From: an uncultured Erysipelotrichaceae bacterium
GTDB lineage: Bacteria; Bacillota_I; Bacilli_A; RF39; UBA660
Length of the DNA stretch: 64,000 nucleotides
Assembly: GCA_902767245.1 (NCBI GenBank)
Contig: CACXGO010000018.1
Location: 27,708 to 91,707, forward strand
Direction of reading: 5' to 3'
In this document: piece by piece, positions 13,239 to 33,656 of the stretch
Layout of the letters: every line of letters begins with the position of its first letter
Position numbering within the stretch: position 1 is the stretch's first letter
Notes under the pieces: model-generated
What the model saw: the letters and a program-made list of their open reading frames with translations, nothing else
The model's database searches: none
Told to the model about the DNA's origin: nothing
Made by a program: the position numbers and the translations under genes

Positions 13239-15290
13239 ATGAAAGTTTTAAAATTTATTGGGAATTTATTTAGATGGTATTTTTTAGGAATTGGGTATAT
13301 TTGTTACCTTATATATTTATTAATAAAACATATATTCTTTTATATTGGATATTTGCTTTCAGCAATATTCTATTTTATTTTTTCTGTTTTGACATTTAAA
13401 CATATAAGAAATATGAAAAATGGTTCATCAAAAATAGTAAAACCAGAAGATATTATTAAGAATAGTGAAACTAATGCTAATATAAAAGAAAATAATTTAG
13501 AAAATAATAATGCATCCGTTAATATTCAAAGTAATATTAATATTTCTGATGATTCAAATCAGAACAATCAATCAGATGCTAATATTCAGCAAAATGTTAT
13601 AGATGTTAATAATTATAATAATAAAGTAGAAGAAAATAAAACGCCTTTAAACATAAATCTTGAAGAAGAAACAGCAATTGAAAATGAGTTGCCATACGAA
13701 ACAGAACTTGGTGTAAATAATGCTAATTTTAAGGCTGAAGCATTTGATCCAAACAATCAGGGGAATTTAGGTTATCATGTGTTTGTAGAAAACAATAATA
13801 TTGCTGAAAACAAGAAAAATGATTCTGTTAAAGTTGAAAAGCAAATTATTAAAGAAGGCAAACTACTTAAAACAGCGAAATCAGAAGAAAAAGTGTTTAA
13901 AGAAATAGATGAAAAACAATCATTTCGTGATCGCTTAGCAATTGCTTTTCCAACTATTTTTGAAGCTTCAAGTGAAAGAAAAAGAGAACGAGAAGAAGCA
14001 AAGAAAAACAAAGAAATGAATGTTGATAGTGAACCAATTATTACTGAAAAAGAAGAAAGTAATATGGGGCCTAAGACTGTTTATGAATATACAGCTCGCG
14101 ATAAAAATGGTAAGTTAGTCAAAAATTATTATGAAGCTTATTCATTAGTTGAAGTACAATCATATTTATTAAGTGAAGGATATGATATATATAAAATAAG
14201 AACAAATCAAACCATCAATTTATTTCACAGAACAACTTCTGGCAAGAAAAAAATGAAAATAAGTGATATGGTATTTTTCTTAACTCAATTATCGACCTAT
14301 TTAAAAGCAGGTATTACATTAACTGAAGCTGTTGAAATCTTATCGCGTCAATTTAAAAAATTAAGTTATCAAAAAATATTTAGAGGAATAGCAAATAATT
14401 TAAAATCAGGAGATAATTTTAGCGAGGCGTTGGCAAAAACAGATGGAGTTTTTCCTAAATTACTTGTAAATATGGTTAAAACATCAGAATTAACGGGTGA
14501 TTTACCAGAAACTCTTGATGACATGGCTGATTATTATACTCAAATGGATAGAACCAAAAAGCAAATGCGTTCAGCTTTAACCTATCCAACAATGGTTTTA
14601 GTACTTGCCATTGGTGTTATTGCATTTGTTTTACTTTATGTAATTCCAAAATTTACATCAATTTATCAATCAATGGATGCAGCAACCATTCCAAAATTAA
14701 CAGTATTTATTATTAAAGCCAGTGATTTTATCAAAGCTAGTTATTATTACATAATTATTGGGTTTATAATATTGCTTTTAGTTATTAGATATTTATATAC
14801 AAATATAACTGCAGCTAGAGCTGCAATGCAAAGAATAGCTATGAAATTACCTGTTTTAAGAGAAGTCATAATTTATAATGAAGTAACAACATTTACTAAG
14901 ACATTTTCATCACTCTTAAAACATGGTGTTTATATAACAGATACAATGAACATATTGCTTCAAGTTACAAATAATGAAATATATCGTCGCTTAATTGCCA
15001 ATTGTATAAAACATTTACGTAAGGGTGAAAATATATCAGTTGCATTTAAAGGACATTGGGCTTTTCCAGTTCCAGCTTATGAAATGATTGTAACAGGTGA
15101 AAGAACAGGAAAATTAGCAGAAATGCTTGCTAAAGTTTCAGAATATTATCAAGATTTACATTCTAATATTGTAAATCGAATGAAAGTTATAATTGAACCA
15201 GTTTTGATAATTTTATTAACAGGTATCGTTGGTGTTATTATATTAGCAGTAATTGTGCCTATGTTTGGAATTTATTCATCACTAGGTTAG
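13239..15290 (+). CDS. Type IV pilus / Com platform protein (GspF/PilC/ComGB family) with a 275-aa N-terminal extension
   Basis: Residues 276-683 form a complete GspF core. This core starts at the usual TVYEYTARDKNGKLVK...LLSEGYDIYKI and has two GspF repeats and 3 TMs. Residues 1-275 add two extra TMs plus an N/Q/E/K-rich low-complexity linker. Confidence 0.85.
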   Translation: MKVLKFIGNLFRWYFLGIGYICYLIYLLIKHIFFYIGYLLSAIFYFIFSVLTFKHIRNMKNGSSKIVKPEDIIKNSETNANIKENNLENNNASVNIQSNINISDDSNQNNQSDANIQQNVIDVNNYNNKVEENKTPLNINLEEETAIENELPYETELGVNNANFKAEAFDPNNQGNLGYHVFVENNNIAENKKNDSVKVEKQIIKEGKLLKTAKSEEKVFKEIDEKQSFRDRLAIAFPTIFEASSERKREREEAKKNKEMNVDSEPIITEKEESNMGPKTVYEYTARDKNGKLVKNYYEAYSLVEVQSYLLSEGYDIYKIRTNQTINLFHRTTSGKKKMKISDMVFFLTQLSTYLKAGITLTEAVEILSRQFKKLSYQKIFRGIANNLKSGDNFSEALAKTDGVFPKLLVNMVKTSELTGDLPETLDDMADYYTQMDRTKKQMRSALTYPTMVLVLAIGVIAFVLLYVIPKFTSIYQSMDAATIPKLTVFIIKASDFIKASYYYIIIGFIILLLVIRYLYTNITAARAAMQRIAMKLPVLREVIIYNEVTTFTKTFSSLLKHGVYITDTMNILLQVTNNEIYRRLIANCIKHLRKGENISVAFKGHWAFPVPAYEMIVTGERTGKLAEMLAKVSEYYQDLHSNIVNRMKVIIEPVLIILLTGIVGVIILAVIVPMFGIYSSLG

Positions 15291-15303
15291 TAGGGGGGAT
15301 AAA

Positions 15304-16068
15304 ATGCAAATATTTATTTATATTATGATATTTGTATTTGGACTTGTTTTAGGGTCGTTTTATAATGTTTTAGGCTATCGATTACCAAAAAAACAATCGA
15401 TAGTTTTTCCATCTTCACATTGTCCAAATTGTAAGCATAAATTACATTTTATAGATTTAATTCCAGTTTTATCTTATGTTTTATTAAAAGGAAAATGTAG
15501 ATATTGCAAAAAAAAGATTTCAATTATATATCCAATTATTGAACTATTAACAGCCATTTTATTTACACTATCTTATTATTTGTACGGATTTTCAATAAAT
15601 TTTGGTATTTCGATAGTATTTTCATCAGTTGCAGTTATTATAATTGCCTCAGATATAAGATACTTAGTAATTAATGATGAAATACTAGTTATTGGAGGTA
15701 TTTTGATTATATTACTTTTAGGCATCAATGGAGATTTTAAGAAAGTATTAGATTTAATTATAAATGGTGTTATTAGCTTCTTAATCATGTTTTTAATTAA
15801 AATTATTGCTGATTTTGTATTTAAAAGGGAAGCTATGGGTGGTGGAGATGTGAAGTTACTTACATTAATTGGAGCACTTGTAAGCTACCCAATGTCTATT
15901 ATGACGTTATGCTTATCTGCATTTATTGCTTTCCCATATGCTATTTTTGTTTATTTTAATAAAAATGATCATGTTCTTCCCTTAGGGCCATTTTTATGTA
16001 TTTCTGGATTGATTATCTATTTTTTAGGTATTAATTTTAATGATTTAATGCAAATAATGGCAAAATAA
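15304..16068 (+). CDS. Prepilin peptidase (A24 family; PilD/ComC)
   Basis: N-terminal CPNC...CRYC zinc motif, a polytopic membrane core, and catalytic-Asp contexts ASDIRYLVINDE and GGGDVKLL. Confidence 0.9.
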   Translation: MQIFIYIMIFVFGLVLGSFYNVLGYRLPKKQSIVFPSSHCPNCKHKLHFIDLIPVLSYVLLKGKCRYCKKKISIIYPIIELLTAILFTLSYYLYGFSINFGISIVFSSVAVIIIASDIRYLVINDEILVIGGILIILLLGINGDFKKVLDLIINGVISFLIMFLIKIIADFVFKREAMGGGDVKLLTLIGALVSYPMSIMTLCLSAFIAFPYAIFVYFNKNDHVLPLGPFLCISGLIIYFLGINFNDLMQIMAK

Positions 16069-16097
16069 AACTGAGTTTGTTTATTACTCAGTTTTTT
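16067..16097. terminator. Bidirectional terminator between the convergent prepilin peptidase and ATPase genes
   Basis: AAAA-CTGAGT-TTGTTTATT-ACTCAG-TTTTTT: an A-run and a T-run flank the hairpin. Confidence 0.7.
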
Positions 16098-17412
16098 AAA
16101 TGTCTAAAGTTTCAAAAGTATCATCTGGCTTTACATCTTCTAAGGTCGTTTTTTCTGCAGCATATTCAACTGGTTCATCAATTATTTCAGGGTTTGATCC
16201 TTCTGTTTCAATTTCATCCATTTGAATATCATCTGTTTCAATTAAACGCATAACTTCTTCCAAAGATGTTAATCCTTGTTCAACTTTCATAAGCCCATCT
16301 TGAAATAAAGTTATAGCATTTTCTTTATCATAAACTAAATTTCTTAATTCTTCTTTTGGCATTGAATCATTTATAGCATCTCTAATAGCTTCGTTAATTA
16401 ATAATACTTCTTGAATTGCAATACGGCCTAAATATCCATGGTTGCATTTATCACAACCATCAGAATAGAACATCTCATTTATATCCTTATTTAGATATTT
16501 TTTAAATATTTCTCTTTCATATTCTTTTGCAGGTCTTTTTTTCATACAATGTGGACATAACCTACGAGCAAGTCTCTGTGAGATAATTCCTGACAAAGCA
16601 GTTGCAAGTAAGTATCTTTCAACATCCATATCAAGTAAACGTTCAATTGTTGTTAAAGAGTTATTAGTATGAATAGTTGAAAGTACTAGGTGGCCAGTGA
16701 TTGAAGCACGAACTGCTATTTTTGCAGTTTCACTATCACGAATTTCTCCAATCATAATTATATCCGGGTCTTGACGCAAGATTGAACGAAGAGTACTTGC
16801 AAAAGTAAGACCGATCTCACTATTTACTTGAACCTGATTAACACCTGGCAAATCCATTTCAATTGGATCTTCAACAGTGATTAAGTTTACATCTTCATGA
16901 TTAATTCTTTGAAGTATTGAATAAACTGTTGTTGATTTACCAGTACCAGTAGCACCAGTAACCAAAATAATTCCACTAGGTTTATTAATCATCTCAATTA
17001 CTTTATCGTAATTTTGTTTATTAAAATCTAAATTTTCAATACCGTTCATATTCGCTTTATAATCCATAATACGAATAACAACTTTTTCACCTAAATTAGT
17101 TGGCAAACTTGAAACACGCATATCAAGTTCTTCAGATTCAATTGTGATTTTAATTGCTCCATCTTGTGGAAGTCGTGTTTCTGTTATATTCATACCACTT
17201 AAAATTTTAATTCTAGTGATCAAATTCTGCTTGTATTCATTTGGAACAAGTGCATAATCAATTAGTGTTCCATCGATACGAATTCGTATTTTTACAAAAC
17301 GATCGTATGGATCAAAATGAATATCACTCGCTTTACGAATAGATGCATCATATAATATATCATTAACAATTTCAACAATTGGAGTGTCAGAAAAATTATA
17401 TTTTTTTAACAT
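16096..17412 (-). CDS. Type IV pilus / Com assembly ATPase (GspE/PilB/ComGA family)
   Basis: Walker A GATGTGKST, Asp box, Walker B DPDIIMIGEIRD, His box TGHLVLSTIHTN, and tetracysteine CPHC...CDKC. The last ~45 aa form an unusual acidic tail. Confidence 0.9.
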   Translation of the reverse strand: MLKKYNFSDTPIVEIVNDILYDASIRKASDIHFDPYDRFVKIRIRIDGTLIDYALVPNEYKQNLITRIKILSGMNITETRLPQDGAIKITIESEELDMRVSSLPTNLGEKVVIRIMDYKANMNGIENLDFNKQNYDKVIEMINKPSGIILVTGATGTGKSTTVYSILQRINHEDVNLITVEDPIEMDLPGVNQVQVNSEIGLTFASTLRSILRQDPDIIMIGEIRDSETAKIAVRASITGHLVLSTIHTNNSLTTIERLLDMDVERYLLATALSGIISQRLARRLCPHCMKKRPAKEYEREIFKKYLNKDINEMFYSDGCDKCNHGYLGRIAIQEVLLINEAIRDAINDSMPKEELRNLVYDKENAITLFQDGLMKVEQGLTSLEEVMRLIETDDIQMDEIETEGSNPEIIDEPVEYAAEKTTLEDVKPDDTFETLDI

Positions 17413-17503: not shown

Positions 17504-18064
17504 ATGAAAAAAAATGGTTTTATGGTTGTTGAGTGCGTAATTGCATCAGTTGTTGTCTTAACGGTTATAATAGTTTTATATACTCAAATAAAATCTGTAA
17601 TTAGAACTTATAATAAAAGTTATAATTATGACAATGTAAGCAGTCTTTATTCACTTTCAAATTTTCGCTCATTTGTATTAACTGGCGATAATTATGATAA
17701 ACTTGTTTCAAAATATCAAGAAAATAAAAATACTAATAGCTCTGTCTGTGGTAAAAATTATGTGTTTGTTTCTTGCAGTATTTTTAATGCAACTAATTAC
17801 TGTGACACACTTTTAAATGTAATGGGAATAACAACTACAAATATACGTCCACAGCAAATAATTTTTACTTCTTCAGATTTAAATGAATTAAAATCATGTG
17901 ACTTAAAACATGAAGCGGGGATGTTAAAAGATTCATTTGTTGATTACATTTTGTCATTAAATGTTGACAAAGAAGAAAATAAATATATGTTGATAGCAGA
18001 ATTTGACGATAGTACGCTTGCATCTATCAATCTATATCGAGCAAGCGAGGTGCAGAATGGTTAA
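17504..18064 (+). CDS. Prepilin-type (class III signal) minor pilin-like protein, 186 aa
   Basis: N-terminus MKKNG/FMVVECVIASVVVLTVIIVLY: Gly at -1, Glu at +5 and a hydrophobic helix. Confidence 0.7.
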   Translation: MKKNGFMVVECVIASVVVLTVIIVLYTQIKSVIRTYNKSYNYDNVSSLYSLSNFRSFVLTGDNYDKLVSKYQENKNTNSSVCGKNYVFVSCSIFNATNYCDTLLNVMGITTTNIRPQQIIFTSSDLNELKSCDLKHEAGMLKDSFVDYILSLNVDKEENKYMLIAEFDDSTLASINLYRASEVQNG

Positions 18065-19772
18065 ACTTAATAATAAAGGACTATCGGTTGTCGAATTAAT
18101 TGTTTCATTTGTACTTTGCATTTTAGTATTTATATTTGTAATTCAAGTTGTATCTGCTATTGAAGAACTTTATGTAAATTTGGGAATAAAGACAGAATTA
18201 TTAAATAAACAATCATTGATAAGTCAAAAATTAAATGAAAAATTCACAAATAAAAAAACAATTTTGATTAAAAATTGTGGAAATAATTGTCTTACTTTTT
18301 TTTATAAAGATAATACATCAGAAAAAATTAAAATAGATAAAAATGCTAATTCATTTATTATTGGAGATGACATTTATAATTTTAATGGTTTAGGTTTTGT
18401 TGATTCTTTAATAGTCACAACCAATAAAACACAAAATTATAATTATGAAATTTTAACGATAAATCTAAATGTAAAAAATACTATTTTCGATAGCGGAAAA
18501 TATATAATAAAATCACTATATCAATACAATAGCAATGAAGTAGTATATAGCGCATCAACAAGTAATAATGCAGAAATTTTCTTGTTAGGGCCTTCAACAA
18601 CTTATAAATTTGCTAATGATGTATTTATTGAACCAGGATGGATTGTTTATTATCCAAGTGGCAAAATAACAATAAATGGTACTGATGTTCAACCTTCAAA
18701 GATAAATTATGACGAAGATGGTAATGGTAGTATTACTTATCGAGGAATTGGTGAAGCTGCTGGTTCTGAAAAGGTAAGAGTTATTAGAAAAAATGAAACT
18801 GCTAAAGACCATATTGTAAGTTTATATAATGATCAAAAAGATGGCGTTTATTTATATGAGCAGTTTGGAAAATATATATACAAAGGTGCGAATGTAAAGA
18901 ACTATATATCAATTGGTAATAAGATGTTTAGGATAATATCTTTAGATATTCAATCACACTATAAATTGGATGAAGATGGGAATGTTATCACAATTGATGG
19001 TGAAAAACAAAAAGAAAATAAATATTTATTAAAAGTAGTAAGTACAGACTATGTTACTGATGAAAATAATAATAATTTGATTGCGTTTGATGATCAAACT
19101 TCAAATATTAATCAATCGCTTTGGATGGAAAAAGTATGCATTACCGAAACAAACTGTGAAATAAAGAAACAAACAATTAATAGGATTGTAAATGACATTT
19201 ATTTACAAGGATTGCTAAATACAGGTACAGGTAAAATGGCAATTAAAAATGGAATTTTTAATGTTGGCCTTGTAGACTTTAATATATATAAATTTGCAGC
19301 AACTAACATCGAAAACAATGTAGACTATACATACTCTGCTCAAACTATTTATGAATTAGAAGGAGCGGATGTGACTACAGAAACTGGTGTAATTTATCCT
19401 GGTAAATGGCATGGAAATTGCTTGGAAGATGTTTGTGGTCCAAATGCTGGCATATTAACTTTAACTGATGTTTTATTTACTAGTAATAATTCAAGATGCT
19501 TAGATGAATTACTTGTAAATAAAAGTGGTGCCAGCTGTTCAAAGGATAATTGGTTATGGTATCAAAATCCAAATAGTGAGGAAGTTTATCGCTTAATGAC
19601 TAGACTTGCACCTTTAGCTACATGGTTGCTTACAGAATACAATTTTCTTAGTTCGAATAAGATTTATGTACCATATAAAACAAGAGCCACATTATTTTTA
19701 GATGCGAATTTATATATTGCTGGTGATGGTTCATATGATAATCCATATACTTTATATTCTATAAATGTATAA
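18057..19772 (+). CDS. Large prepilin-type protein, 571 aa (candidate tip/minor pilin)
   Basis: ATG 18057 overlaps the upstream stop (AATGGTTAAA). N-terminus MVKLNNKG/LSVVELIVSFVLCILVFIFVI has Gly -1 and Glu +5. The rest is a long beta-rich, Cys-containing domain. Confidence 0.65.
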   Translation: MVKLNNKGLSVVELIVSFVLCILVFIFVIQVVSAIEELYVNLGIKTELLNKQSLISQKLNEKFTNKKTILIKNCGNNCLTFFYKDNTSEKIKIDKNANSFIIGDDIYNFNGLGFVDSLIVTTNKTQNYNYEILTINLNVKNTIFDSGKYIIKSLYQYNSNEVVYSASTSNNAEIFLLGPSTTYKFANDVFIEPGWIVYYPSGKITINGTDVQPSKINYDEDGNGSITYRGIGEAAGSEKVRVIRKNETAKDHIVSLYNDQKDGVYLYEQFGKYIYKGANVKNYISIGNKMFRIISLDIQSHYKLDEDGNVITIDGEKQKENKYLLKVVSTDYVTDENNNNLIAFDDQTSNINQSLWMEKVCITETNCEIKKQTINRIVNDIYLQGLLNTGTGKMAIKNGIFNVGLVDFNIYKFAATNIENNVDYTYSAQTIYELEGADVTTETGVIYPGKWHGNCLEDVCGPNAGILTLTDVLFTSNNSRCLDELLVNKSGASCSKDNWLWYQNPNSEEVYRLMTRLAPLATWLLTEYNFLSSNKIYVPYKTRATLFLDANLYIAGDGSYDNPYTLYSINV

Positions 19773-20678
19773 TAATATTAAAAGAAAAATAGGCGAAATG
19801 ATTGCTTGGAGGACTCTTCCTAATAAGAAGTTTTTGTATTTAACTTTAGTGTCACTTAAGATACTATATACTTGACTATGAATGCAAAACCCTCCAAATG
19901 ATAAAGCCGTTGTTATTGTTAAAGCTTTAAATTTAATATTAATATTCAAATTGTTTAAACTAAATAAACCACTAGTTAATTCAATTAATAAACTTATAAT
20001 AGTTTTTAAAACTTGACTAAAATTAAAATAATAAAAAGTAATTTTAAGTAATATTTGAAAAACAATTAAGTTTCCAAGTATTATTAAAAGTGAATTGAAA
20101 CTATCAATAATACTTTTGGATAATATTTTACCAAAAGTGTTTGGTTTTAAAGAAATGTTAGTAGATTCTATATTAGTATTGGCTTTTATAAAAAAGGCAA
20201 TGACAAAATTGCTTAAAAAGTGACTTAAAAGTATTAAAAAACCAAGAAACTTATTTTTTAATATAGTTAACCCAATAATATTTATGATAAAAAGTGGATT
20301 TGAAAAATGAGTAAACATTATTAATCTGTTTGCTTCTTCAATTGAAATTAAATTTTCTTTTAAAAGATTAGATATATATTTGGCACCACTAGGAAAACCA
20401 GTAAGCATACTAAAAATAAGAATAAAAATGGCGCTACTTTTAAGTCCAAACATTTTATAAAATGGCTTTTCTAAAGAAAATTCAATTATTTTAATAAAAT
20501 CATAATTTACTAGCAGATCAACCACAATATAAAATGGAAAAATTGTTGGTAATAAATTATATAACCAAATTTTACAAGAATTTATAACAATAATTGGAAT
20601 ATCTTCAACTATAAATAAATTTATAAAAACAAATAAAAAGAGTAATATAAAAAAACAATTAGATTTTTTCATAGACAC
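19752..20678 (-). CDS. Polytopic membrane protein, YlbJ-like (nucleoside-recognition/Gate-domain sporulation membrane protein family)
   Basis: 8+ TMs. ALSFGGFCIHSQVYSIL resembles the YlbJ motif. It neighbours a YlbL-like gene, as in Bacillus ylbJ-ylbL. Confidence 0.5.
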   Translation of the reverse strand: MSMKKSNCFFILLFLFVFINLFIVEDIPIIVINSCKIWLYNLLPTIFPFYIVVDLLVNYDFIKIIEFSLEKPFYKMFGLKSSAIFILIFSMLTGFPSGAKYISNLLKENLISIEEANRLIMFTHFSNPLFIINIIGLTILKNKFLGFLILLSHFLSNFVIAFFIKANTNIESTNISLKPNTFGKILSKSIIDSFNSLLIILGNLIVFQILLKITFYYFNFSQVLKTIISLLIELTSGLFSLNNLNINIKFKALTITTALSFGGFCIHSQVYSILSDTKVKYKNFLLGRVLQAIISPIFLLILLYIYRI

Positions 20679-25280: not shown

Positions 25281-26744
25281 ATGCGCAAATTTTTGACATT
25301 ATTAGTATTACTAGTGGCGTTTTTACCAAAAATTTCAGCAACTTCATTAACCACTGAAACTAATGCCTTTAATAATCGAATCAGCACGGAAACTATTGAT
25401 TTAAAGGCTGCATTAAATAGTTTTAATAATTATTTAACAAACAATTCAAATAAAATATCTAATGCGTTAGATATCAATTTGATTAAAACTATCGCTACAA
25501 ACTTAAAAAATAATAATTATACTGCAGCTTTTTCAGCTCTAGAAAATGCTGTAAATGATGATAATTTAACCAATTTAAATCTTTCATCAAAAATTAATAA
25601 TTATTTGAATTTAAAATCTGATTTAATTAGTTTTGTAAATACAAACAAAGCAAAATTAGATGTTGAAACAGGAACTGATGAAGGACTTGAATGTTCACTT
25701 TCATTACTTGACCAAATAAAACAATCATTTAATGAAGTAAAGCCAATTTTCTCAACAACAATTGAAAAGCTAGGAAAAACATTTTCAACGGTTATTAAAA
25801 ATCATATTGCAGAAAAGAAAAATATTAATAATAGTGAACTTAATAACATTATAGATGAATATAATGAGTTAGCTTCATTGTTAGCAAATTTGGTAGAAAA
25901 ATATTACAATTCTTTAGATGATTACAAATCAACTTTTAAAGTTATAAGTGGAAGCGAAAAATTATTTGAATCGTTAATTAGAAAGAAATTTAAAACAGAT
26001 TTAGATAATTTGCTTGAAAATGCTGAAGCTACTTTAAAAGCCCCAGTTAATGAGTTTATTAATAAAAGATGGGATATTTTAGAAAATGATGTAACTGAAC
26101 TTATCGAAAGTGATAAAACAATACCAGAAAAAAATGAAAATATATATTCAAAAATAGATAAAGTTGAAGCAGTAAATGAAAAATTCATTAATGCAATCAA
26201 TAATATTATTGGTAAATTAGATATTAATTCAATTAAAGATAAATTAAATAAAGTATTAAATCGAGGCAAAAATGAATTTGCTCATGCAATTGAATATTTG
26301 GAAGCTCACCTTATAATAGGTGAATATGATATTGAATTGGTTGATGGTCATGATGCAAAAGTTACCATTGATCGTGCTAAAGAATTAATTATTTTGGATC
26401 GCTTGTTTGGAATTCAAGAATTTAAGAATCAAATTAGATTAGCAAATAATTTAGGAACATTAAAGTTTAATCTTGGTACTTATACTTATGTTGCTAATAA
26501 ATCAACAGTATCGGTAGAAGATAATAATGAAACGAAAAAAGAATACAAGATAATTGTTAAAGGTGATGTAAATAATAATGGAAATGTTACAATATCCGAC
26601 GCAGTTGAAGCAGCATATTATTCGTTAAATGATCGTGATCTTGATGAGTATCAAGTACTTGCAGCTGATATGAATAATAACAATACTGTAACTATTTCTG
26701 ATGTATATCTAATTGCTTTAAGAGCTTTGGAAGGAGGTAATTAA
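25281..26744 (+). CDS. Secreted helical protein with a C-terminal type-I-like dockerin
   Basis: Signal peptide MRKFLTLLVLLVAFLPKISA and ~400 aa of helix-prone sequence. The C-terminal duplicated Ca-loop/helix pair is GDVNNNGNVTISDAVEAAYY...AADMNNNNTVTISDVYLIALRAL. An alternative start is at 25272. Confidence 0.6.
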   Translation: MRKFLTLLVLLVAFLPKISATSLTTETNAFNNRISTETIDLKAALNSFNNYLTNNSNKISNALDINLIKTIATNLKNNNYTAAFSALENAVNDDNLTNLNLSSKINNYLNLKSDLISFVNTNKAKLDVETGTDEGLECSLSLLDQIKQSFNEVKPIFSTTIEKLGKTFSTVIKNHIAEKKNINNSELNNIIDEYNELASLLANLVEKYYNSLDDYKSTFKVISGSEKLFESLIRKKFKTDLDNLLENAEATLKAPVNEFINKRWDILENDVTELIESDKTIPEKNENIYSKIDKVEAVNEKFINAINNIIGKLDINSIKDKLNKVLNRGKNEFAHAIEYLEAHLIIGEYDIELVDGHDAKVTIDRAKELIILDRLFGIQEFKNQIRLANNLGTLKFNLGTYTYVANKSTVSVEDNNETKKEYKIIVKGDVNNNGNVTISDAVEAAYYSLNDRDLDEYQVLAADMNNNNTVTISDVYLIALRALEGGN

Positions 26745-26745: not shown

Positions 26746-27873
26746 ATGAAGAAATTTCTTTTACTATTTGTAAGTTTGTTTATGCCATTTTTGGTTAATG
26801 CGGCCAGTGTTAGTATGACTGGAACCACTACTATTTCGCCAGGTGAAACAGTTGCACTTCCAATTATTGTATCTGATAGTAATGAAATACATGGTGTACA
26901 AATGGTTATGACATTAAGTGGATCAGATTTTGACTTATTAATTGATAAAACTGTTTCATCTTATCAAATTCTTGTAAAGAAGAAATTAAGTAATGGATAT
27001 GGTTTATCTATAATTAGTACAAGTAAAAAAATTGCAAATAAAGGAACACTTGCTAAAATATATATTAAAGCTAATTCATCAGCAACACCTGGGAACAAAG
27101 CAACTTTAACTTTAAAGGATATAATTTTTGCAACAGGAGCTGAACTTAATGATACAAAAGCAAGTAATTATTCAAAAACGCTTACAGTAGGTGCAGTAAA
27201 ATCAACAAACAATTATTTAAGTTCATTAAAAGTTGAAGGATATAATATCTCATTCAATAAAAACACAACTGCTTATACAATAAATGGTGCAACAAGCGGA
27301 AGTGCTCTTAAGGTAACAGCAAATGCTGAAGATGAAAAAGCAAATGTTAAAATTAATTCACCAAAATTAGTTTCTGGAAAAAACACAATTACAGTAGTTG
27401 TTACCGCTGAATCTGGAGCTAAAAGAACATACACAATTACTGTAAATGTCCCAACCGAAACAGTTGATAAGAGTGCAATAGATTTAAAAACATTAGAAGT
27501 TAAAGGCTATGATATTAAATTTGATCCTCAAAATACAGATTATGTCTTAAATGTAAACAATGATGTTGAGAAAGTAGAAATTAATTCCACATTAAAAGAT
27601 GAAACATCATCTAAAACCATGAATGGACCAGATAAATTGCAAGTTGGTGAGAACTTGTATACAATAACTGTAACTGATAAGTCTGGGAATAAAAAGGTTT
27701 ATAAGTTGACAATTAACCGCTTGGCAAAAGAAAAAGAATGTGAAGTATGTAAAGTATGTGACGAGTGCGAAAGCGGAAGTTCAATTTGGAAATTTTTAGC
27801 AATAGCCCTTGTAATTGTTACGTTAGCTGAAACAATTTATATGGTATCAATGCGTGACAAAAAGCAATTTTAA
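26746..27873 (+). CDS. Membrane-anchored cohesin protein: cohesin-like domain, two cadherin-like beta-sandwich domains, a Cys cluster and a C-terminal TM
   Basis: Signal peptide. Cohesin-like pattern SVSMTGTTTISPGETVALPIIVSDSNEIHGVQMVMTL...GTLAKIYIKANSSATPGNKATLTLKDIIFA. There are two copies of the LSSLKVEGYNISFNKNTTAYTI...GKNTITVVVTAESGAKRTYTITV type. Then ECEVCKVCDECESG, then the TM FLAIALVIVTLAETIYMV and tail RDKKQF. Confidence 0.6.
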   Translation: MKKFLLLFVSLFMPFLVNAASVSMTGTTTISPGETVALPIIVSDSNEIHGVQMVMTLSGSDFDLLIDKTVSSYQILVKKKLSNGYGLSIISTSKKIANKGTLAKIYIKANSSATPGNKATLTLKDIIFATGAELNDTKASNYSKTLTVGAVKSTNNYLSSLKVEGYNISFNKNTTAYTINGATSGSALKVTANAEDEKANVKINSPKLVSGKNTITVVVTAESGAKRTYTITVNVPTETVDKSAIDLKTLEVKGYDIKFDPQNTDYVLNVNNDVEKVEINSTLKDETSSKTMNGPDKLQVGENLYTITVTDKSGNKKVYKLTINRLAKEKECEVCKVCDECESGSSIWKFLAIALVIVTLAETIYMVSMRDKKQF

Positions 27874-27907: not shown

Positions 27908-27952
27908 TTGAAAAAAACTTTCTCCTGTTATATAATTGAAATGAGGGATTTT

Positions 27953-28642
27953 ATGGAAGAAATTAATTTAACTGATTTATTAAAATATTTTATAAGTAGA
28001 ATATTAATTATTATTTTAATTACAATTTTTTGTGGTTTACTTGGATCAATGTATTCACTATTTTTACAAACACCTATGTACAAATCTAAAACAACATTAC
28101 TTTTAGCTAATGTTTCAACTTTTGATTCAAATAATGTATCTGGTAATTTATCTACAGATATTACATTGAATCAAAAACTTGTTTCAACATATCGTGAAAT
28201 AATTAAAAGTAAGAGAGTATTAAAACAAGTAATAAGAAAATTGGATTTAGATTTGGAATATGATACTTTAAAAAACATGATTTCTGTTGATTCAATATCA
28301 AATACTGAAGTCATATCAGTAACAGTAACCAACAAAAGTCCAGAGGCTGCTGCTTATATTGCTAATGAAGTAGCTAATACCTTCTGTGATGAAATAGTTA
28401 ATATTTATCAAATTCAAAATGTAAACATAATTGATAAAGCTGAAGTAAGTAGTAATCCATATAATATTAATTTAGTTAAGCAAATAATTATTTATTTATT
28501 AATTGGTTTTGTATTAGGGTGTGGAATTGTATTCATTATTTACTATTTTGATACAACAATAAAAACAAAAGAAGAAATTGAAGAAAAAGTAGGCTTACCA
28601 GTTTTAGGTATTATTCCTTTAAAAAAGGAGGCACGTAAATGA
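27953..28642 (+). CDS. Wzz/CpsC/YwqC-type polysaccharide co-polymerase (BY-kinase transmembrane modulator)
   Basis: GAGGG RBS before ATG 27953. Two TMs flank a Wzz-like loop (YKSKTTLLL...LVSTYREIIKSKRVLKQV). The ATGA overlap with the kinase gene indicates coupling. Confidence 0.8.
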   Translation: MEEINLTDLLKYFISRILIIILITIFCGLLGSMYSLFLQTPMYKSKTTLLLANVSTFDSNNVSGNLSTDITLNQKLVSTYREIIKSKRVLKQVIRKLDLDLEYDTLKNMISVDSISNTEVISVTVTNKSPEAAAYIANEVANTFCDEIVNIYQIQNVNIIDKAEVSSNPYNINLVKQIIIYLLIGFVLGCGIVFIIYYFDTTIKTKEEIEEKVGLPVLGIIPLKKEARK

Positions 28643-29316
28643 AAAATGATTTAGTTGTAGTTACTTCACCAAAAGCTATCATAAGTGAAGGTTTTAGAAC
28701 CCTAAGAACAAATTTACAATTTTCAACTATTGATTCTAAAATTCAAACAATAGCTGTTGTTAGTTCAATGCAAGGAGAAGGTAAAAGCTTTGTATCAGCT
28801 AATTTAGCTTGTGCGTTTGCTCAAGCAGGCGAAAAAGTATTATTGATTGATTGCGATATGAGACGTGGTCGTTTACATAAAATATTTAATATTGAAAACG
28901 AAAATGGGTTTTCTAATTTACTAATATCTGATATTAAAGATTTTAATTCATATATTAAAAAAACTGAAATTAAAAATCTTTCAGTTTTACCAATGGGAGC
29001 AATTCCTCCTAATCCAGCTGAATTAATTGCAAGTTCAAAAAACGAAAAATTAATGGAATTATTAAAAGAAAAATATGACGTTATTATATATGATTGTGTA
29101 CCTGTAACAGGGCTTACAGATTCGCTTATTATGTCAAAGTTAGTTGATAAAACAATAATTGTTGCAGCATCAAAAGTAACACCATTAGAACTTTTGCAAA
29201 ATACTAAAAAATCACTTTTAAATGTAGGTGCTGATATTGCTGGTGTTGTTTTTAACCGAGTTAGTACTGAAAGAAGTATTTATGCTAATAAATACTATGG
29301 TAAATATTATTCATGA
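28639..29316 (+). CDS. Bacterial tyrosine kinase, cytoplasmic subunit (CpsD/CapB/YwqD type)
   Basis: Walker A SSMQGEGKS, Walker A' LLIDCDMRRG, Walker B VIIYDCVP, and a C-terminal Tyr cluster YANKYYGKYYS. Confidence 0.85.
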   Translation: MKNDLVVVTSPKAIISEGFRTLRTNLQFSTIDSKIQTIAVVSSMQGEGKSFVSANLACAFAQAGEKVLLIDCDMRRGRLHKIFNIENENGFSNLLISDIKDFNSYIKKTEIKNLSVLPMGAIPPNPAELIASSKNEKLMELLKEKYDVIIYDCVPVTGLTDSLIMSKLVDKTIIVAASKVTPLELLQNTKKSLLNVGADIAGVVFNRVSTERSIYANKYYGKYYS

Positions 29317-30080
29317 TAGATATCCACTCACACATCTTATATGGAATTGATGATGGAGCTAAAAACATTGATGACAGTGTTAGTCTAATTAATAGTGCTA
29401 TTAAAAACAATGTTAAGAAAATTATTCTTACACCGCATTATATTGTAGAATCAAATTCAATAACTCCAAATAAGACCAAAAAAGAAATATTGAATAAAAT
29501 AAAAAAACAAGTTTCTTCAGAAGTTGAACTTTATTTGGGTAATGAAATATATATGGATGATGATATTGCTTCATTAATTGATGCTAATAAAATTATGCCT
29601 TTAGCAAATAGCAAATATTTATTAATTGAGCTTCCAATATATAATGAATATCCAAACTTAGAAAACAAATTGTTCTCTTTAAGAAATTTGGGATACAAAA
29701 TTATAATTGCTCATCCAGAAAGATATTACTATTTTAAAAATGATTTTAGTAAATTACTTAAGCTTTGTAAACAAGGCATTTACTTTCAAGGTAATTATAT
29801 GTCACTTTATGATATATATGGTAAAAGTACAAAAAAATTATTTTTAAAAATATTAAAACATCATTGCTATAGTTTTATGGCGAGTGATATTCATATGCCT
29901 AGTCAAAAATATTATGATAAAATTAGCGATGCCAAAGCTAAAATAGCAAAAATTACAAATAAATCTTATTGTGATGATATATTTTATAACAATGCGGATA
30001 AAATAATAAAGAACGAAGAAGTAGAAAATAGTTATAAAGAAAAAATATCAATTTTTGATAGAATAAGAGGGAATAAATGA
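29313..30080 (+). CDS. PHP-family protein-tyrosine phosphatase (CpsB/YwqE type)
   Basis: N-terminal MIDIHSHILYGIDDGA, then TPH, AHPERY and SDIH metal-binding motifs. Confidence 0.85.
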   Translation: MIDIHSHILYGIDDGAKNIDDSVSLINSAIKNNVKKIILTPHYIVESNSITPNKTKKEILNKIKKQVSSEVELYLGNEIYMDDDIASLIDANKIMPLANSKYLLIELPIYNEYPNLENKLFSLRNLGYKIIIAHPERYYYFKNDFSKLLKLCKQGIYFQGNYMSLYDIYGKSTKKLFLKILKHHCYSFMASDIHMPSQKYYDKISDAKAKIAKITNKSYCDDIFYNNADKIIKNEEVENSYKEKISIFDRIRGNK

Positions 30081-31219
30081 AAAAGAAGTTAATAATATTA
30101 TTCTTGTTTCTAATATTTCCTTTTTTTGTATCTGCATATACAAAAGAGGATATAATTAAACTTGTAGACAATCAAAAAACATGTGATCAAGAAACAGAAA
30201 ACATGTATTCAAAATATTTTAATATATATTCGAGATTGTTAAAAAAGAAAGATGTATCTGAAGGTGACTTGAATCAAATTCATACAAATTTAACTAAAGC
30301 CTTGGTAATTGCAAATAAATATAACTTATGCAGTATTGATGATCTTGATAATATACCAAAGAAAGAGAAAAGCGAATTATATAATTACTTGTATGATAGT
30401 TATAAATTAATTTTAAAATCAAAAAATCTGGATGATACAGAAACAAATGTTATTTATAATGGCGATGGTACAATAGATATATATGAAAATGGTGAACACT
30501 TAGAACAAATCAAAACAGCAAAAGATACATTTAACTATGTTGGATTAAGCAAATACTTTGTTTATTTAAAATACCTTTTACCATTTAGTTTAATCGTTAT
30601 TTTTATATTTGTGATGAAAACAAGAAAAAAGATTTTTATTAATGAAATACTTATAATTTTACTAGTGATTGATATTATTCTAACTTTAGTATATTTTAAA
30701 GCAGGAAATAAAATATATGATGCTTATAATCTTATAAAATCTATGAGTTATATTGAAAATAAAGAAGTAACTAAAATTGAAGTCAAAAATAAAAAAATTA
30801 TTAAATATCCCAGTTTTGGTTCAAAATATGGTGTATTAAAAATAGATAATCTTGGAATCAACTTACCAATTTTTTACGGTGACTCCAAAGAAATATTAAA
30901 AAAAGGCATTGGACATAGTCAATCATTTCCAGGTTTTGGAGGGACAACTATATTAAGTGGCCATAATTCAAAGATTTTTTTAAATAGTTTAAAAAATATT
31001 AAGATTTCTAGTTTAATTGAAGTTGAGACTGATTATGGAGCTTTTATATATAAAGTAAGAAAAATTGAAATATTAAATACTGATCAATATTCAAAATTAG
31101 AAAAAGGAAAAAATGAAATTATTTTGTATACATGTTATCCATTTGATGAAATAGTTTATTCAAATCAGAGATTTGTTGTTTATGCTAGTTTAATAGAATC
31201 GAAGTGGTTGAATGGTTAA
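30077..31219 (+). CDS. Sortase-domain protein with an atypical ~230-aa N-terminal extension (signal peptide, extracytoplasmic domain, two TMs)
   Basis: The C-terminal ~145 aa carry the sortase His (TILSGHNS), Cys (ILYTCYPF) and Arg (NQRFVVYA) contexts. ATGA overlap with the phosphatase gene. Confidence 0.7.
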   Translation: MKKKLIILFLFLIFPFFVSAYTKEDIIKLVDNQKTCDQETENMYSKYFNIYSRLLKKKDVSEGDLNQIHTNLTKALVIANKYNLCSIDDLDNIPKKEKSELYNYLYDSYKLILKSKNLDDTETNVIYNGDGTIDIYENGEHLEQIKTAKDTFNYVGLSKYFVYLKYLLPFSLIVIFIFVMKTRKKIFINEILIILLVIDIILTLVYFKAGNKIYDAYNLIKSMSYIENKEVTKIEVKNKKIIKYPSFGSKYGVLKIDNLGINLPIFYGDSKEILKKGIGHSQSFPGFGGTTILSGHNSKIFLNSLKNIKISSLIEVETDYGAFIYKVRKIEILNTDQYSKLEKGKNEIILYTCYPFDEIVYSNQRFVVYASLIESKWLNG

Positions 31220-31976
31220 AAGAATAATTTTTATTACACTAATAACATTTTTAATATTAGTTTCACTTTCTTTTGTTGTTTATTCAAAAATTTTTAATAA
31301 AAATCAAATCGTTCAGGAATTTAATCGTATCAATTATTATGATTATGTATATAAAGAAATAAATAAAAATTTGGAGTTAGAGTTACCAAATTCGGAGCTA
31401 TCATACCTTTATTTTAATTATTTAACTATTTCACAAGTAAAAAAAGATATTAATGTTGTTTTAGATTCATATTTAAGCAAAAAAGATAATGATGTTAAAA
31501 CAAAATTTTATAATAACATTATAAATAATTTTGAAAACAAAAATGATGCATATGTAAAAGAATTAGCAAAAAGATTATCAAATACATATTATAGTGGTTT
31601 ATTTAGTTTTGATAAATTAGATAAATTTATCGAAAAATTGCCATATCGAAATATATCTAAGAAAGTTGCAATTGTTAGTTTATTTATAACAATTTTAATA
31701 ATACTTTTATCAATAAAAAAAGACTTAATTGATATATCAATTTCATTTATTACAAGTGGAATAATATTTATAATTCCCAAGATTTTTATTCATTTTAAAA
31801 ATATTTTATTAAATTTTTACTATTATAATAAATCGCTTTCTTACTTTATTAAGAATTATATATTTCATTTGATTAATATATTCTTTAAGATTGGATTTAT
31901 ATTGATGATTTTAGGCCTAATTGGTTTTACTATACATTATATTAGACATTTTAGATTGACTAGCAGTGTAAAGTGA
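31212..31976 (+). CDS. Polytopic membrane protein of unknown function, translationally coupled to the sortase gene
   Basis: 8-nt overlap (AATGGTTAAA). N-terminal TM, a ~130-aa soluble segment and 3-4 C-terminal TMs. No motif recognised. Confidence 0.5.
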   Translation: MVKRIIFITLITFLILVSLSFVVYSKIFNKNQIVQEFNRINYYDYVYKEINKNLELELPNSELSYLYFNYLTISQVKKDINVVLDSYLSKKDNDVKTKFYNNIINNFENKNDAYVKELAKRLSNTYYSGLFSFDKLDKFIEKLPYRNISKKVAIVSLFITILIILLSIKKDLIDISISFITSGIIFIIPKIFIHFKNILLNFYYYNKSLSYFIKNYIFHLINIFFKIGFILMILGLIGFTIHYIRHFRLTSSVK

Positions 31977-32010: not shown

Positions 32011-32445
32011 ATGAATTTGATTAATTTTTTAGCCGTAGGAGTAAAATGTGGCGATACTGAAATTGGTGGGATGATTGTAGGAATTATTGGGACTATTTAT
32101 AATGGAATTAAGATAGGGGTGCCAATAATCTTAATAATTGTTGGTATGGTTGGAATGGGGAAGGCCATAGCCCAACAAAAAGAGGATGAAATAAAGAAAG
32201 CCCAAAGCACATTAATTAAACAAGCAGTAGCAGCAGTAATAGTATTTTTAATGTTTCAATTAGTACAACTTGGAATGAGTGCTTTAAATGTTAAAAACGA
32301 TTCAAATTGGCAATGTGTTAAAATGATATTAATTCCACCAAAAGATGGTGACGACTGTAAAATGGATGACGGTAATGGTGGCGGATGGAGAATTCTCAAT
32401 GAAAATACCAATGATGCAATGTGGGAATGCCAAAGTAGGGGATAA
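32011..32445 (+). CDS. Two-TM hairpin small protein, paralog 1 of 4 (TrbC/VirB2-like topology)
   Basis: GGAGG RBS. Conserved core IYNGIKIGVPIILIIVGMVGMGKAIAQQKEDEIKKAQSTLIKQAVAAVIVFLMFQLVQL. The C-tail is variable and contains WQC...C...WEC. Confidence 0.65.
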   Translation: MNLINFLAVGVKCGDTEIGGMIVGIIGTIYNGIKIGVPIILIIVGMVGMGKAIAQQKEDEIKKAQSTLIKQAVAAVIVFLMFQLVQLGMSALNVKNDSNWQCVKMILIPPKDGDDCKMDDGNGGGWRILNENTNDAMWECQSRG

Positions 32446-32451
32446 AATTCA

Positions 32452-32886
32452 ATGACTATGATTAATTTCTTAGCGACAAAAGGAATAATTTGTGCAGGAA
32501 TCAGATTAGAAGGAGATATTGTCGGAATTATTCGAACCGTTTATAATGGAATAAAAATAGGAGTTCCTTTAATCTTGATTTTTGTTGGAATGTTTGGCAT
32601 GGCCAAAGCAATCACTATGCAAAAGGAAGATGAAATAAAAAAAGCTCAGAATTTACTTGTTAGACAAGCAGTAGCAGCAGTAATAGTATTTTTAATGTTT
32701 CAATTAGTACAACTTGCAATGAGTGTAATTAAAGTAAAAAATTCATCAAATTGGTCTTGCGTAAAAGCTGTTTTAGTTGAACCAGATTCTAAAACAAAAT
32801 GTTATACAGATGATGGAAAAGAAGCTTATTGGGGCTCTGACCACTTAACTGATTCATATTGGCAATGTGATGGAGCGGCTGGTTAA
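32452..32886 (+). CDS. Two-TM hairpin small protein, paralog 2 of 4
   Basis: Same core (VYNGIKIGVPLILIFVGMFGMAKAITMQKEDEIKKAQNLLVRQAVAAVIVFLMFQLVQL). It shares a 53-nt identical run with paralog 1 and long identical runs with paralog 3. Confidence 0.65.
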   Translation: MTMINFLATKGIICAGIRLEGDIVGIIRTVYNGIKIGVPLILIFVGMFGMAKAITMQKEDEIKKAQNLLVRQAVAAVIVFLMFQLVQLAMSVIKVKNSSNWSCVKAVLVEPDSKTKCYTDDGKEAYWGSDHLTDSYWQCDGAAG

Positions 32887-32918
32887 AAACTTATTATAAA
32901 TAAAATTGAGGTGATATA

Positions 32919-33263
32919 ATGTTTTTCTTAGATGAAATGTGTGGTGCATGTGCATCCGCTGGTCTTGGGAATATTCCTAATCAGGTAGTTAATATAATAC
33001 ATATTGTTTTTGTAGCAATAAAAATAGGAGTTCCTTTGATTCTAATTTTTGTTGGAATGTTTGACATGGCTCGCGCAATCACTCTACAAAAGGAAGATGA
33101 AATAAAAAAAGCTCAAAATTTATTGGTAAGAAAAGCAGTAGCAGCAGCTTTAGTGTTTTTAATGCTTTCTTTAGTCAGCACATTATTTAGTGTTGTTGGC
33201 GGTGAAGGATCAGAGAATATTTGGAGTTGCGTTAATGCACTTTTAAATGGTATATGTTCATAA
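32919..33263 (+). CDS. Two-TM hairpin small protein, paralog 3 of 4
   Basis: GAGGTGA RBS. Core AIKIGVPLILIFVGMFDMARAITLQKEDEIKKAQNLLVRKAVAAALVFLM. The N-tail has CGAC and the C-tail has WSC...ICS. Confidence 0.65.
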   Translation: MFFLDEMCGACASAGLGNIPNQVVNIIHIVFVAIKIGVPLILIFVGMFDMARAITLQKEDEIKKAQNLLVRKAVAAALVFLMLSLVSTLFSVVGGEGSENIWSCVNALLNGICS

Positions 33264-33293
33264 AAAGTATCAATGATACTTTTTGTTTTTTTT
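33263..33293 (+). terminator. Rho-independent terminator after paralog 3
   Basis: AAAAGTATC-AAT-GATACTTTT followed by a T-rich run. An extended -10 TGTTATAAT (TATAAT at 33309-33314) follows and could drive paralog 4 separately. Confidence 0.7.
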
Positions 33294-33332
33294 AAAATAA
33301 TTTTATGTTATAATGATTTTGGTGACTAATCT

Positions 33333-33656
33333 ATGTTTTTGGATATTATGTGTGCTGGAACTGAACTTCCAGATTATGTTGGATATTATGTATCATTAAT
33401 ATATTTTGCAATACGTATTTGTGTTCCAATTTTATTAATTATTGTTGGAATGATTGATATGGGAAGAGCAATTGTCTCTAAAAAAGAAGAAGATGTTAAA
33501 AAAGCTCAAGGACTATTATTAAAAAAAGTAGTTCTTGGAATAATAGTATTCTTACTTCCTTACTTTGTTGAATTAGTTATTAAGATATTTACTAAAGATA
33601 ATGAATTAGTTGATTGTATTAAAAAACTTATAGATTATAGAACAAATTTATTTTAG
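33333..33656 (+). CDS. Two-TM hairpin small protein, paralog 4 of 4 (most divergent)
   Basis: Core AIRICVPILLIIVGMIDMGRAIVSKKEEDVKKAQGLLLKKVVLGIIVFLLPYFVELV. It has its own promoter-like box and terminator. Confidence 0.6.
   Translation: MFLDIMCAGTELPDYVGYYVSLIYFAIRICVPILLIIVGMIDMGRAIVSKKEEDVKKAQGLLLKKVVLGIIVFLLPYFVELVIKIFTKDNELVDCIKKLIDYRTNLF

Follow-up and report, generated by a model that had tools for sequence, protein, structure and literature searches.

Does a run of co-directional surface genes encode a single apparatus or a set of separate systems that share a stretch of chromosome? The question is raised by positions 13,239 to 33,656 of a 64,000-nucleotide stretch of DNA from an uncultured Erysipelotrichaceae bacterium (contig CACXGO010000018.1, positions 27,708 to 91,707; the whole stretch is called the window, and coordinates refer to it unless a locus is named). 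In this region 20 open reading frames (ORFs) lie between trmK/yqfQ and recD2. The initial annotation described the region as one surface-assembly island, and all of the surface genes that it listed were found where it had placed them, with family scans confirming the list. The single-system interpretation was partly supported: the right part, from a giant pilin gene to four membrane-hairpin genes, is syntenic in the closest relatives, but the type IV pilus (T4P) block is separable from it. We think it probable that the envelope modules of this region were inherited separately and adjoin one another as a mosaic, in a slot that is prone to rearrangement. Such a mosaic would, in our judgement, most plausibly consist of a backbone T4P cluster, an esterase gene of variable copy number, an accessory operon of pilin, dockerin and cohesin genes, an ancient cassette of kinase, sortase and G16, and a lineage-specific hairpin expansion. 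A substrate-sortase fusion within the cassette, and the three-gene cassette from which the fusion derives, are apparently undescribed. Literature on the combination of a sortase with Wzz, a bacterial tyrosine kinase (BY-kinase) and a cohesin/dockerin pair was searched and nothing relevant was found.

The features of the region, assigned to modules A to E or to the backbone, are the following.

13239..15290, + strand: PilC/GspF-type platform protein, module A, 683 amino acids (aa); PF00482 185 bits, TIGR02120 274 bits.
15304..16068, + strand: prepilin peptidase A24, module A; PF06750 and PF01478, synteny kept in relatives.
16096..17412, - strand: PilB/GspE-type assembly ATPase, module A, 438 aa, without the N-terminal domain; PF00437 423 bits.
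17504..18064, + strand: prepilin, module A, 186 aa, leader KNG↓FMVVE; homologs in relatives come after pilB.
18060..19772, + strand: large prepilin-like protein, module A, about 570 aa, leader NKG↓LSVVE; homologs in relatives vary in length.
19752..20678, - strand: YlbJ, backbone; TIGR02871 and NF041438 matches for the ylbJ-ylbL pair.
20696..21691, + strand: YlbL/SepM-like PDZ-Lon protease, backbone; the pair is interleaved with module A and co-conserved with the T4P genes.
21708..23231, + strand: G8, membrane-anchored Ig-like and alpha/beta-hydrolase protein, module B; PF16403 and esterase families (PHB-depolymerase/esterase type).
23328..25262, + strand: G9, modular type IV pilin, module C, 644 aa, leader KNG↓FTLVE; PF07963, TIGR02532, PF16403.
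25272..26744, + strand: G10, secreted helical protein with a C-terminal dockerin, module C, 490 aa; PF00404 26.7 bits.
26746..27873, + strand: G11, signal peptide, cohesin, two cadherin-like Ig domains, C-terminal transmembrane (TM) anchor and basic tail, module C, 375 aa.
27908..28642, + strand: G12, Wzz/CpsC-type polysaccharide co-polymerase, module D, 2 TM segments; PF02706, TIGR01006.
28639..29316, + strand: G13, BY-kinase, module D; TIGR01007 192 bits (cut-off 108).
29313..30080, + strand: CpsB-type PHP tyrosine phosphatase, module D; PF19567 195 bits.
30077..31219, + strand: G15, probable substrate-sortase fusion, module D, 380 aa; PF04203 72.5 bits, TIGR01076 55.8 bits.
30533..30544, + strand: NYVG codons of G15 (N153-Y154-V155-G156), putative relic or active sorting motif, judged by conservation among G15 homologs.
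31212..31976, + strand: G16, 4-TM membrane protein, module D, 254 aa, with an outside loop of about 125 aa.
32011..33656, + strand: four tandem 2-TM hairpin paralogs, module E, N-out/C-out, two conserved Cys, cytoplasmic loop KAITQQKEDEIKKAQ.

Almost all of these genes are co-directional, as had been proposed, and the minus strand of the region holds two genes only. The gaps between G9, G10 and G11 measure 9 and 1 nt, and from Wzz through kinase, phosphatase and sortase to G16 successive genes share 4, 4, 4 and 8 nt. This tight spacing argues for co-transcription, and the operon structure rests on the small gaps rather than on terminators. The earlier statement that only a few terminators separate the genes found no support, as 4 terminator-like sites were counted and 4.1 were expected in shuffled sequence, making a promoter/terminator scan uninformative for operons in DNA of 25% GC content. 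Rfam scans at the gathering threshold and tRNA scans of the whole 64-kb window gave zero matches.

The left part of the region was followed through relatives using PilB as anchor, and 80 metagenome loci (L082-L161) were fetched. The order dnaG-sigA-trmK-yqfQ-pilC-pilD-pilB-pilin-pilin-ylbJ-ylbL was found in about 25 of the PilB-anchored loci (PilB identity 61-86%), with zero homologs of G9-G20 in these syntenic loci. At least nine relatives extend beyond ylbL next to dnaG-sigA and do so without any G9-G20 homolog. The T4P cluster together with ylbJ/ylbL (13.2-21.7 kb) is a conserved backbone and is not part of a lineage-specific island. G8-G20 occupy a variable slot between ylbL and recD2, and the genes that relatives carry beyond ylbL were named by sequence inspection. 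In L091 ylbL is followed by a uvrC-like gene, a 313-aa pilin and recD2, in L094 and L101 by a mutS-like gene and then nusB-xseA (a pair that in the window comes 25 kb later), and in L082 and L083 by a folD-like gene and then esterase paralogs. Conversely, L003 and L004 retain the G9-to-recD2 block and the post-recD2 genes and carry unrelated genes, with no T4P genes, 5' of G9. The G8 esterase itself varies in number, with one copy in the window, 2 in L002, at least 4 in L082 and 0 in L003 and L004. The 313-aa prepilin of L091, a locus that has none of G8-G20, begins KKGFTLIELLAV, has a Cys-rich C-terminus and lies directly 5' of recD2 (window-oriented ORF 16).

The backbone cluster encodes T4P or type II secretion-like machinery, comprising a PilB-type ATPase, PilC, an A24 peptidase and two prepilins, and with G9 the region has three G↓FxxxE-type leaders. 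The prepilins at 17504-18064 and 18060-19772 had zero family-model matches, and their canonical G↓F/LxxxE leaders were read from the sequence. The PilB homolog scored under the equivalog cut-offs of GspE, PilB and ComGA. The cluster did not qualify as a ComG competence pseudopilus, with ComGA at 273.5 bits (below 300), ComGB at 159 (below 240) and the pilin models sub-threshold. comEA (SLBB and HHH_3) and comEC (Competence and Lactamase_B) lie at 6657-9162, directly 5' of dnaG-sigA and the pilus cluster. The pilus neighbourhood is conserved and, going by the gene content, possibly has a role in DNA uptake. The PilC homolog carries an Asn-rich N-terminal extension of about 280 aa with N-terminal TM segments (13239-14080) that is absent from standard PilC/GspF, and its length ranges from 484 to 843 aa among relatives.

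The sortase G15 gave access to the right part. Its long 380-aa architecture was recovered in 84 full-length protein clusters of 32-60% identity, all from uncultured 'Bacilli/Mollicutes/Tenericutes/Erysipelotrichaceae' metagenome-assembled genomes (MAGs), and synteny was counted in 23 genome loci. Wzz-kinase-CpsB lies directly 5' of the sortase in 19 of the 23, with one further locus cut by a contig end, and G16 lies directly 3' in 22. In most relatives this cassette is present without dockerin, cohesin, pilin or hairpins, often adjoining polysaccharide biosynthesis genes. The flanking genes of distant relatives, assigned by sequence inspection, are Wzx-like flippase, UDP-glucose dehydrogenase-like, GT2-like, acetyltransferase-like, VanZ-like, or recX/prsA-like. 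G13 has the hallmarks of a BY-kinase: Walker A GEGKS, A' LLIDCDMRR, B VIIYD, a C-terminal Tyr cluster YANKYYGKYYS and a Wzz gene that overlaps it by 4 nt. Pfam, NCBIfam and PDB gave no match to G16. Its outside loop has a weak [LF]PxxE motif, which was considered as a sorting motif and rejected because the clade of the window itself does not conserve it. It is likely that Wzz-BY-kinase-CpsB-sortase-G16 constitutes a deeply conserved, old functional unit. The persistent coupling to Wzz/BY-kinase/CpsB and the polysaccharide-gene neighbours suggest that the G15 ectodomain and G16 act with the co-polymerase.

G15 itself consists of a signal peptide (aa 1-20), a substrate-like ectodomain (aa 21-152), NYVG (aa 153-156), TM1, a KTRKK basic loop, TM2 and a sortase domain (aa ~235-377). 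Membership in the sortase superfamily is supported by the PF04203 score and by a TIGR01076 score over its cut-off (39.35), and H296, C353 (in YTCYP) and R365 are invariant in 28 homologs. The AlphaFold model comprises a helical bundle, a small sheet, a TM hairpin and the sortase fold, and Foldseek matched it to SrtA/C/D/E with TM-scores up to 0.78. G15 does not classify as a class D sortase, scoring 88.7 bits with NF033746 (below 165) and 96.5 with NF058671 (below 140). In the N-terminal half VSA↓Y, [LF]NYVG, TM1 and KTRKK follow one another in the order of a cell-wall sorting signal, with a motif that is not LPXTG-like. Across the 28 homologs V155 and G156 never vary, and N153 and Y154 hardly do. 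The ectodomain contains two conserved Cys, C36 and C85, and as a family it has no Pfam/NCBIfam model and its profile found no significant match among PDB sequences.

The origin of this arrangement was suggested by the 57 other genome-scan matches, which are sortases of a short form, about 220-240 aa long, whose sources include Ruminococcus, Lachnospiraceae and Acutalibacteraceae. Cultured carriers are Faecalimonas umbilicata DSM 103426, Ruminococcus sp. JE7B6 and Lachnoclostridium sp. MSJ-17. Short forms were counted in 50 loci with a called sortase ORF. Directly 5' of the sortase, 44 of the 50 encode a secreted protein of 185-220 aa with a cell-wall sorting signal made up of [IV]KxTG, a TM segment and a basic tail, the motif reading IKTTG in 21 substrates. 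A G16 homolog lies directly 3' in 43, making G16 an obligate partner of the sortase in both long and short forms, and 39 loci have both neighbours. Wzz or a BY-kinase lies within 4 kb of the short sortase in 19 of the 50. The three-gene cassette is widespread in Clostridia (loci L025-L081, for example L059 9099-11305 and L030 9355-11547), and its first and third genes, for the ~190-aa sorted protein and the G16-like protein, have no Pfam/NCBIfam model.

Comparison of the G15 N-terminal domain with these Clostridial substrates gave hmmsearch scores of up to 31 bits using a hidden Markov model of the domain. With signal peptide and TM segment removed, hhalign gave a probability of 92.9% and an E value of 3.6e-7 over 88 columns, and a reversed control gave 0.5%. 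The alignment is collinear, and [LF]NYVG, found in 26 of 27 homologs, occupies the same position as the [IV]KxTG of the unfused substrates. By these alignments the N-terminal half of G15 is homologous to the Clostridial sorted substrate. The simplest reading is that G15 is a natural substrate-sortase fusion, in which the substrate and sortase genes became joined in this lineage. The ancestral form would have been the three Clostridial genes (~190-aa sorted protein, short sortase and G16-like protein), of which the first two are fused here, and the TM hairpin would be made up of the former sorting-signal helix and the former sortase anchor. The closest known arrangement is that of class C/D-type sortases with dedicated substrates, with which these proteins share the sortase fold and the His-Cys-Arg triad, and in Clostridia also a substrate gene directly 5' with a tripartite signal. 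They differ from such cassettes in that G15 merges substrate and enzyme, the motif is [LF]NYVG ([IV]KxTG when unfused) and not LPXTG, class D cut-offs are missed, a 4-TM partner G16 is obligate and linkage to Wzz/BY-kinase is regular.

The pilin-dockerin-cohesin operon is less widely distributed. G9 is restricted to the closest clade, always directly 5' of the dockerin gene, and has a weak PDB match to the pilin PilE1. The C-terminal Dockerin_1 domain of G10 scored above the PF00404 cut-off of 22.9 bits, its last 55 residues match the PDB dockerins 4uyq/4uyp (E 0.008), and two Ca-loop repeats, DVNNNGNVTISD and DMNNNNTVTISD, identify it as a type I dockerin. The carrier of this dockerin is a helical portion of about 380 aa without an enzyme domain. 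Pfam PF00963 did not call a cohesin in G11, yet the cohesin noted in the initial annotation was confirmed by profile and predicted fold. A profile of seven sequences matches the C. perfringens NagJ cohesin (2jh2, 2o4e, 2ozn) at E 0.006-0.009, and the AlphaFold model (35 homologs, pLDDT 87.6) aligns with 2jh2 at a TM-score of 0.81 and a root-mean-square deviation of 2.5 A, with 2vo8, 6kgc, 5nrm and 5lxv matching too. The distant G11 homologs P0324 and P0335 carry PF00963. Distant 644-aa 'cohesin' matches such as P0328 were dropped, being similar via cadherin-like domains only and having unrelated context. Directly before the membrane G11 of the closest clade contains a CxxCxxCxxC motif (CEVCKVCDEC, 27736-27765, about aa 331-340), which lies outside the TM helix.

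The dockerin/cohesin genes accompany sortase-G16 in some lineages only, at 6 complete and 2 truncated loci and in three arrangements: 5' of Wzz (the window, L002-L004), 3' of G16 (L005, L007), and 3' of G16 with the kinase module lacking (L009, L010, L014). The pair was found at 6 of 23 sortase loci and, using family-specific HMMs, at 0 of 84 controls of at least 10 kb (45 PilB loci and 39 Clostridial sortase loci), giving a Fisher p of 5.6e-5 that is uncorrected for phylogeny. The linkage to sortase-G16 is real but facultative. The co-occurrence expected by the initial annotation was seen for the dockerin/cohesin pair with sortase-G16, but the T4P genes and the kinase cassette each occur alone. 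In one species (L004, L162-L164; L162 3717-4595) a Zn-dependent phospholipase C gene lies between the cohesin gene and Wzz. A further locus without a sortase, L165, encodes at 1717-19000 a dockerin-bearing cadherin-like protein of 1956 aa and, after it, two cadherin-like/cohesin-like proteins, and its dockerin genes adjoin a Tad/Flp pilus cluster, making a second dockerin-pilus neighbourhood.

An LPXTG-like signal was sought in G9, G10, G11, all other window ORFs and all ORFs of the 23 long-form loci, and none was found, nor does the alignment of seven G11 homologs contain one. In that search only G11 combines a signal peptide, a C-terminal TM segment and a basic tail, with no conserved motif before the TM segment; for this reason G11 was rejected as a demonstrated sortase substrate. 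With a single cohesin, a single dockerin and no enzyme domain on the dockerin carrier, the operon does not amount to a cellulosome, and G10 and G11 have the appearance of a display pair complete in itself, in which the secreted G10 would dock, by its Ca-binding dockerin, onto the cohesin of membrane-anchored G11. This layout resembles the non-cellulosomal NagJ/NagH pair of C. perfringens, whose cohesins (2jh2, 2o4e, 2vo8) are the best sequence and fold matches of G11, and R. flavefaciens ScaE, all having a single cohesin on a cell-bound anchor and a single dockerin on a secreted partner encoded by a neighbour. It departs from ScaE, which has an LPXTG signal, in that the G11 anchor is a C-terminal TM helix, and from both pairs in that the dockerin carrier is a helical non-enzyme and the pairing is predicted only. 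Modular type IV pilins are exemplified by S. sanguinis PilB/PilC. G9 shares with them the canonical class III leader, the pilin N-domain and grafted Ig-like modules, but is much larger (644 aa), is encoded apart from the pilus genes and heads a dockerin-cohesin operon. The backbone may supply both the PilD that processes G9 and the pilus machinery that assembles it. This dependence on PilD/PilB would be the sole functional bridge between the left and right halves of the region, and in four species only.

The four hairpin genes form a direct-repeat family of 63-83% nucleotide identity and are true paralogs. Each product has two TM segments, two conserved Cys, an N-out/C-out topology and no signal peptide. 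They occur in the closest clade only, between G16 and recD2. At E <=1e-3 the wider family comprised 7416 clusters at 50% identity (proteins P0354-P0497). The T4SS_pilin model PF18895 (threshold 26.6 bits) was not reached, with 7 of 15 paralogs matching sub-threshold (best E 5.4e-4) and distant family members coming near at 25.3 bits. The hairpins have the two-TM topology in common with this VirB2/TrbC-like pilin family of type IV secretion systems (T4SS), but are chromosomal tandem paralogs beside recD2 with no T4SS ATPase or coupling-protein genes nearby. They are best taken, with reasonable but not high confidence, as a lineage-specific expansion of a very large uncharacterised membrane-hairpin family that is remotely like T4SS pilins. 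Some distant members carry Big_2, LysM or NlpC/P60 extensions.

Several known systems place a kinase or a transpeptidase in a comparable setting. Streptococcal CpsB/CpsC/CpsD and B. subtilis TkmA/PtkA/PtpZ belong to the same three families as the kinase module, in which Walker motifs and Tyr cluster are intact. Compared to the streptococcal capsule loci, the window order is C-D-B, followed by sortase and G16 where glycosyltransferases would stand, and LCP and biosynthesis genes were not found in the 64-kb window. In the PEP-CTERM/exosortase (XrtA) systems of Gram-negative exopolysaccharide (EPS) loci, a chain-length determinant and a tyrosine autokinase are encoded alongside a sorting transpeptidase. 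The exosortase is a polytopic membrane protease that is unrelated to sortases. G12 and G13 match, below threshold, the NCBIfam models TIGR03007 and TIGR03018, which are named for the XrtA system. The target signals are built alike, with a short motif, then a TM segment, then a basic cluster, but the organisms differ and the PEP-CTERM motif is absent here, so the parallel is a conceptual one. A 2026 genetic study found that a sortase of a capsule locus, srtB4 of Mediterraneibacter (M.) gnavus, is required for capsule presentation and gut colonisation, its deletion abolishing presentation; substrate and mechanism were not identified there (PMC13121745). srtB4 is clustered with a candidate upstream substrate, an LCP gene and a BY-kinase/phosphatase pair (PMC13121745). 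The window shares with this cluster a sortase inside a locus with BY-kinase/phosphatase and a candidate substrate preceding it, but srtB4 is unfused, its neighbour LCP ligase is not G16-like, and in the window no biosynthesis genes adjoin. M. gnavus SrtB4 was considered as a member of the G15 family and rejected, its primers being absent from the loci studied and the primer-derived peptide looking class-B-like.

How do these modules fit together? One explanation is that all of them make up a single tyrosine-kinase-regulated, pilus-based adhesion or display apparatus, to which cohesin-dockerin pairing and the sortase attach cargo. G9 to G20 are co-directional and tightly packed, the order from T4P to recD2 is apparently whole in the nearest relative (PilB locus L082 and sortase homolog P0007, each mapping to a 48,711-bp contig), a prepilin gene is first in the dockerin-cohesin operon in four species, and the distant cohesin-like/dockerin pair of L165 adjoins a Tad pilus cluster, all of which fits one apparatus. 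However, the T4P block occurs without the remainder in at least nine adequately long loci, the G9-recD2 block occurs without adjoining T4P genes in L003 and L004, and 15 of 23 relatives have kinase-sortase-G16 with no pilin, dockerin, cohesin or hairpin genes alongside. The sortase seems to own a fused substrate and no recognisable sorting motif is present in G10 or G11, making a specialised sortase that attaches cargo unlikely. Taken together we regard the single apparatus as improbable. The block G8-G20 could also be read as a horizontally acquired mobile genomic island, given that the ylbL-recD2 slot holds other genes in relatives. This we rejected and consider very improbable: the window has zero tRNA genes, no flanking direct repeats were found, GC content is uniform (0.21-0.29) with continuous GC skew, and integrase, transposase and conjugation genes were not found among the scanned proteins. 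Neither identical copies in unrelated genomes nor att-like junctions were seen, and in four species the block keeps vertical synteny with recD2 and the genes beyond it. The right block in full (giant pilin, dockerin, cohesin, Wzz, BY-kinase, CpsB, sortase, G16 and hairpins) is syntenic in L002-L004 and L162-L164.

For a mosaic, the question shifts to what the sortase cassette does. Tentatively, we propose that G15 is a 'self-sorting' sortase that would plant its own ectodomain in the wall and, with G16, act as the wall-side partner of CpsC/D/B, and that this clade recruited the cohesin-dockerin pair, the 644-aa pilin and the hairpins into a display locus. The sortase domain would cleave its own or a neighbour's polypeptide after NYV of NYVG and then link the helical ectodomain to peptidoglycan, and the wall-linked ectodomain would, together with the Wzz/BY-kinase co-polymerase, present or regulate surface polysaccharide. 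It is also conceivable, and we hold it with similar reserve, that the substrate-derived N-terminal half of G15 has ceased to be cleaved and serves as a permanent extracellular accessory or regulatory domain, while the sortase acts on conventional substrates encoded elsewhere. As one doubtful but possible example, an uncleaved N-terminal half might contact Wzz or G16. An accessory domain would suit a motif that is unlike every characterised sorting motif and unlike the [IV]KxTG of the unfused relatives, as well as the conserved C36 and C85, which suggest a stable folded ectodomain, and one enzyme per substrate seems wasteful. Against it, NYVG is the most conserved element of the N-terminal half and stands at exactly the position expected before a TM segment and basic loop, which is hard to explain for a dead motif, and the only protein resembling a sorted substrate near any of the 23 long-form sortases is the cohesin protein.

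Several points weigh against the self-sorting, mosaic reading. The relatives are all represented by MAG or metagenome fragments no longer than 21 kb, and a module absent from a locus is not necessarily absent from the genome. G9-G10-G11 are tightly linked to module D in four species, and shared function could explain this. The sediment MAG loci L009, L010 and L014 carry sortase-G16-dockerin-cohesin without the kinase module, in the order VanZ-sortase-G16. The 64-kb window has no initiating transferase, glycosyltransferase, flippase (Wzx) or polymerase (Wzy) gene and so does not constitute a Wzy-dependent capsule/EPS locus; a polysaccharide role must rely on genes elsewhere, or the kinase has another target. 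QNPDIYAW, derived from the SrtB4 primers, looks class-B-like and marks SrtB4 as an analogue rather than the same sortase clade. The putative cleavage at NYV↓G would put valine in front of the scissile bond, which sortases are not known to favour.

Other genes of the window bear on the organism more generally, a low-GC Firmicute of the gut that is Erysipelotrichaceae-like. FtsW/RodA, Mur ligase and glucosaminidase genes indicate that it is walled. A pentapeptide-repeat protein gene and a spore-coat CotE gene lie at 45132-45719 and 57054-57599, and CotE together with YlbJ and YqfQ indicates, as far as gene content can tell, a spore-former. The window also encodes an ASST arylsulfotransferase (1943-3868, minus strand) and a 1129-aa SH3, glucosaminidase and Ig-like surface protein (38013-41402) that is syntenic 3' of recD2 in all close relatives.

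For annotation, the region is a caution that co-directional surface genes need not form one 'island'. Three families without models are flagged by this work, namely the sorted ectodomain, G16 and the hairpin family of more than 7000 clusters, and a natural substrate-sortase fusion would be of interest to sortase enzymologists and protein engineers. Little is understood of how membrane-based capsule or EPS assembly is tied to the thick wall of Gram-positive bacteria. The cassette of small wall-sorted protein, sortase and 4-TM partner, which in most cases adjoins Wzz/BY-kinase, is a concrete and widespread candidate for that link; it is present in cultivable gut Clostridia and, as a fusion, in uncultured gut Bacilli. 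If the proposal holds, the self-sorting G15 cassette would be a Gram-positive counterpart of exopolysaccharide-linked exosortase sorting.

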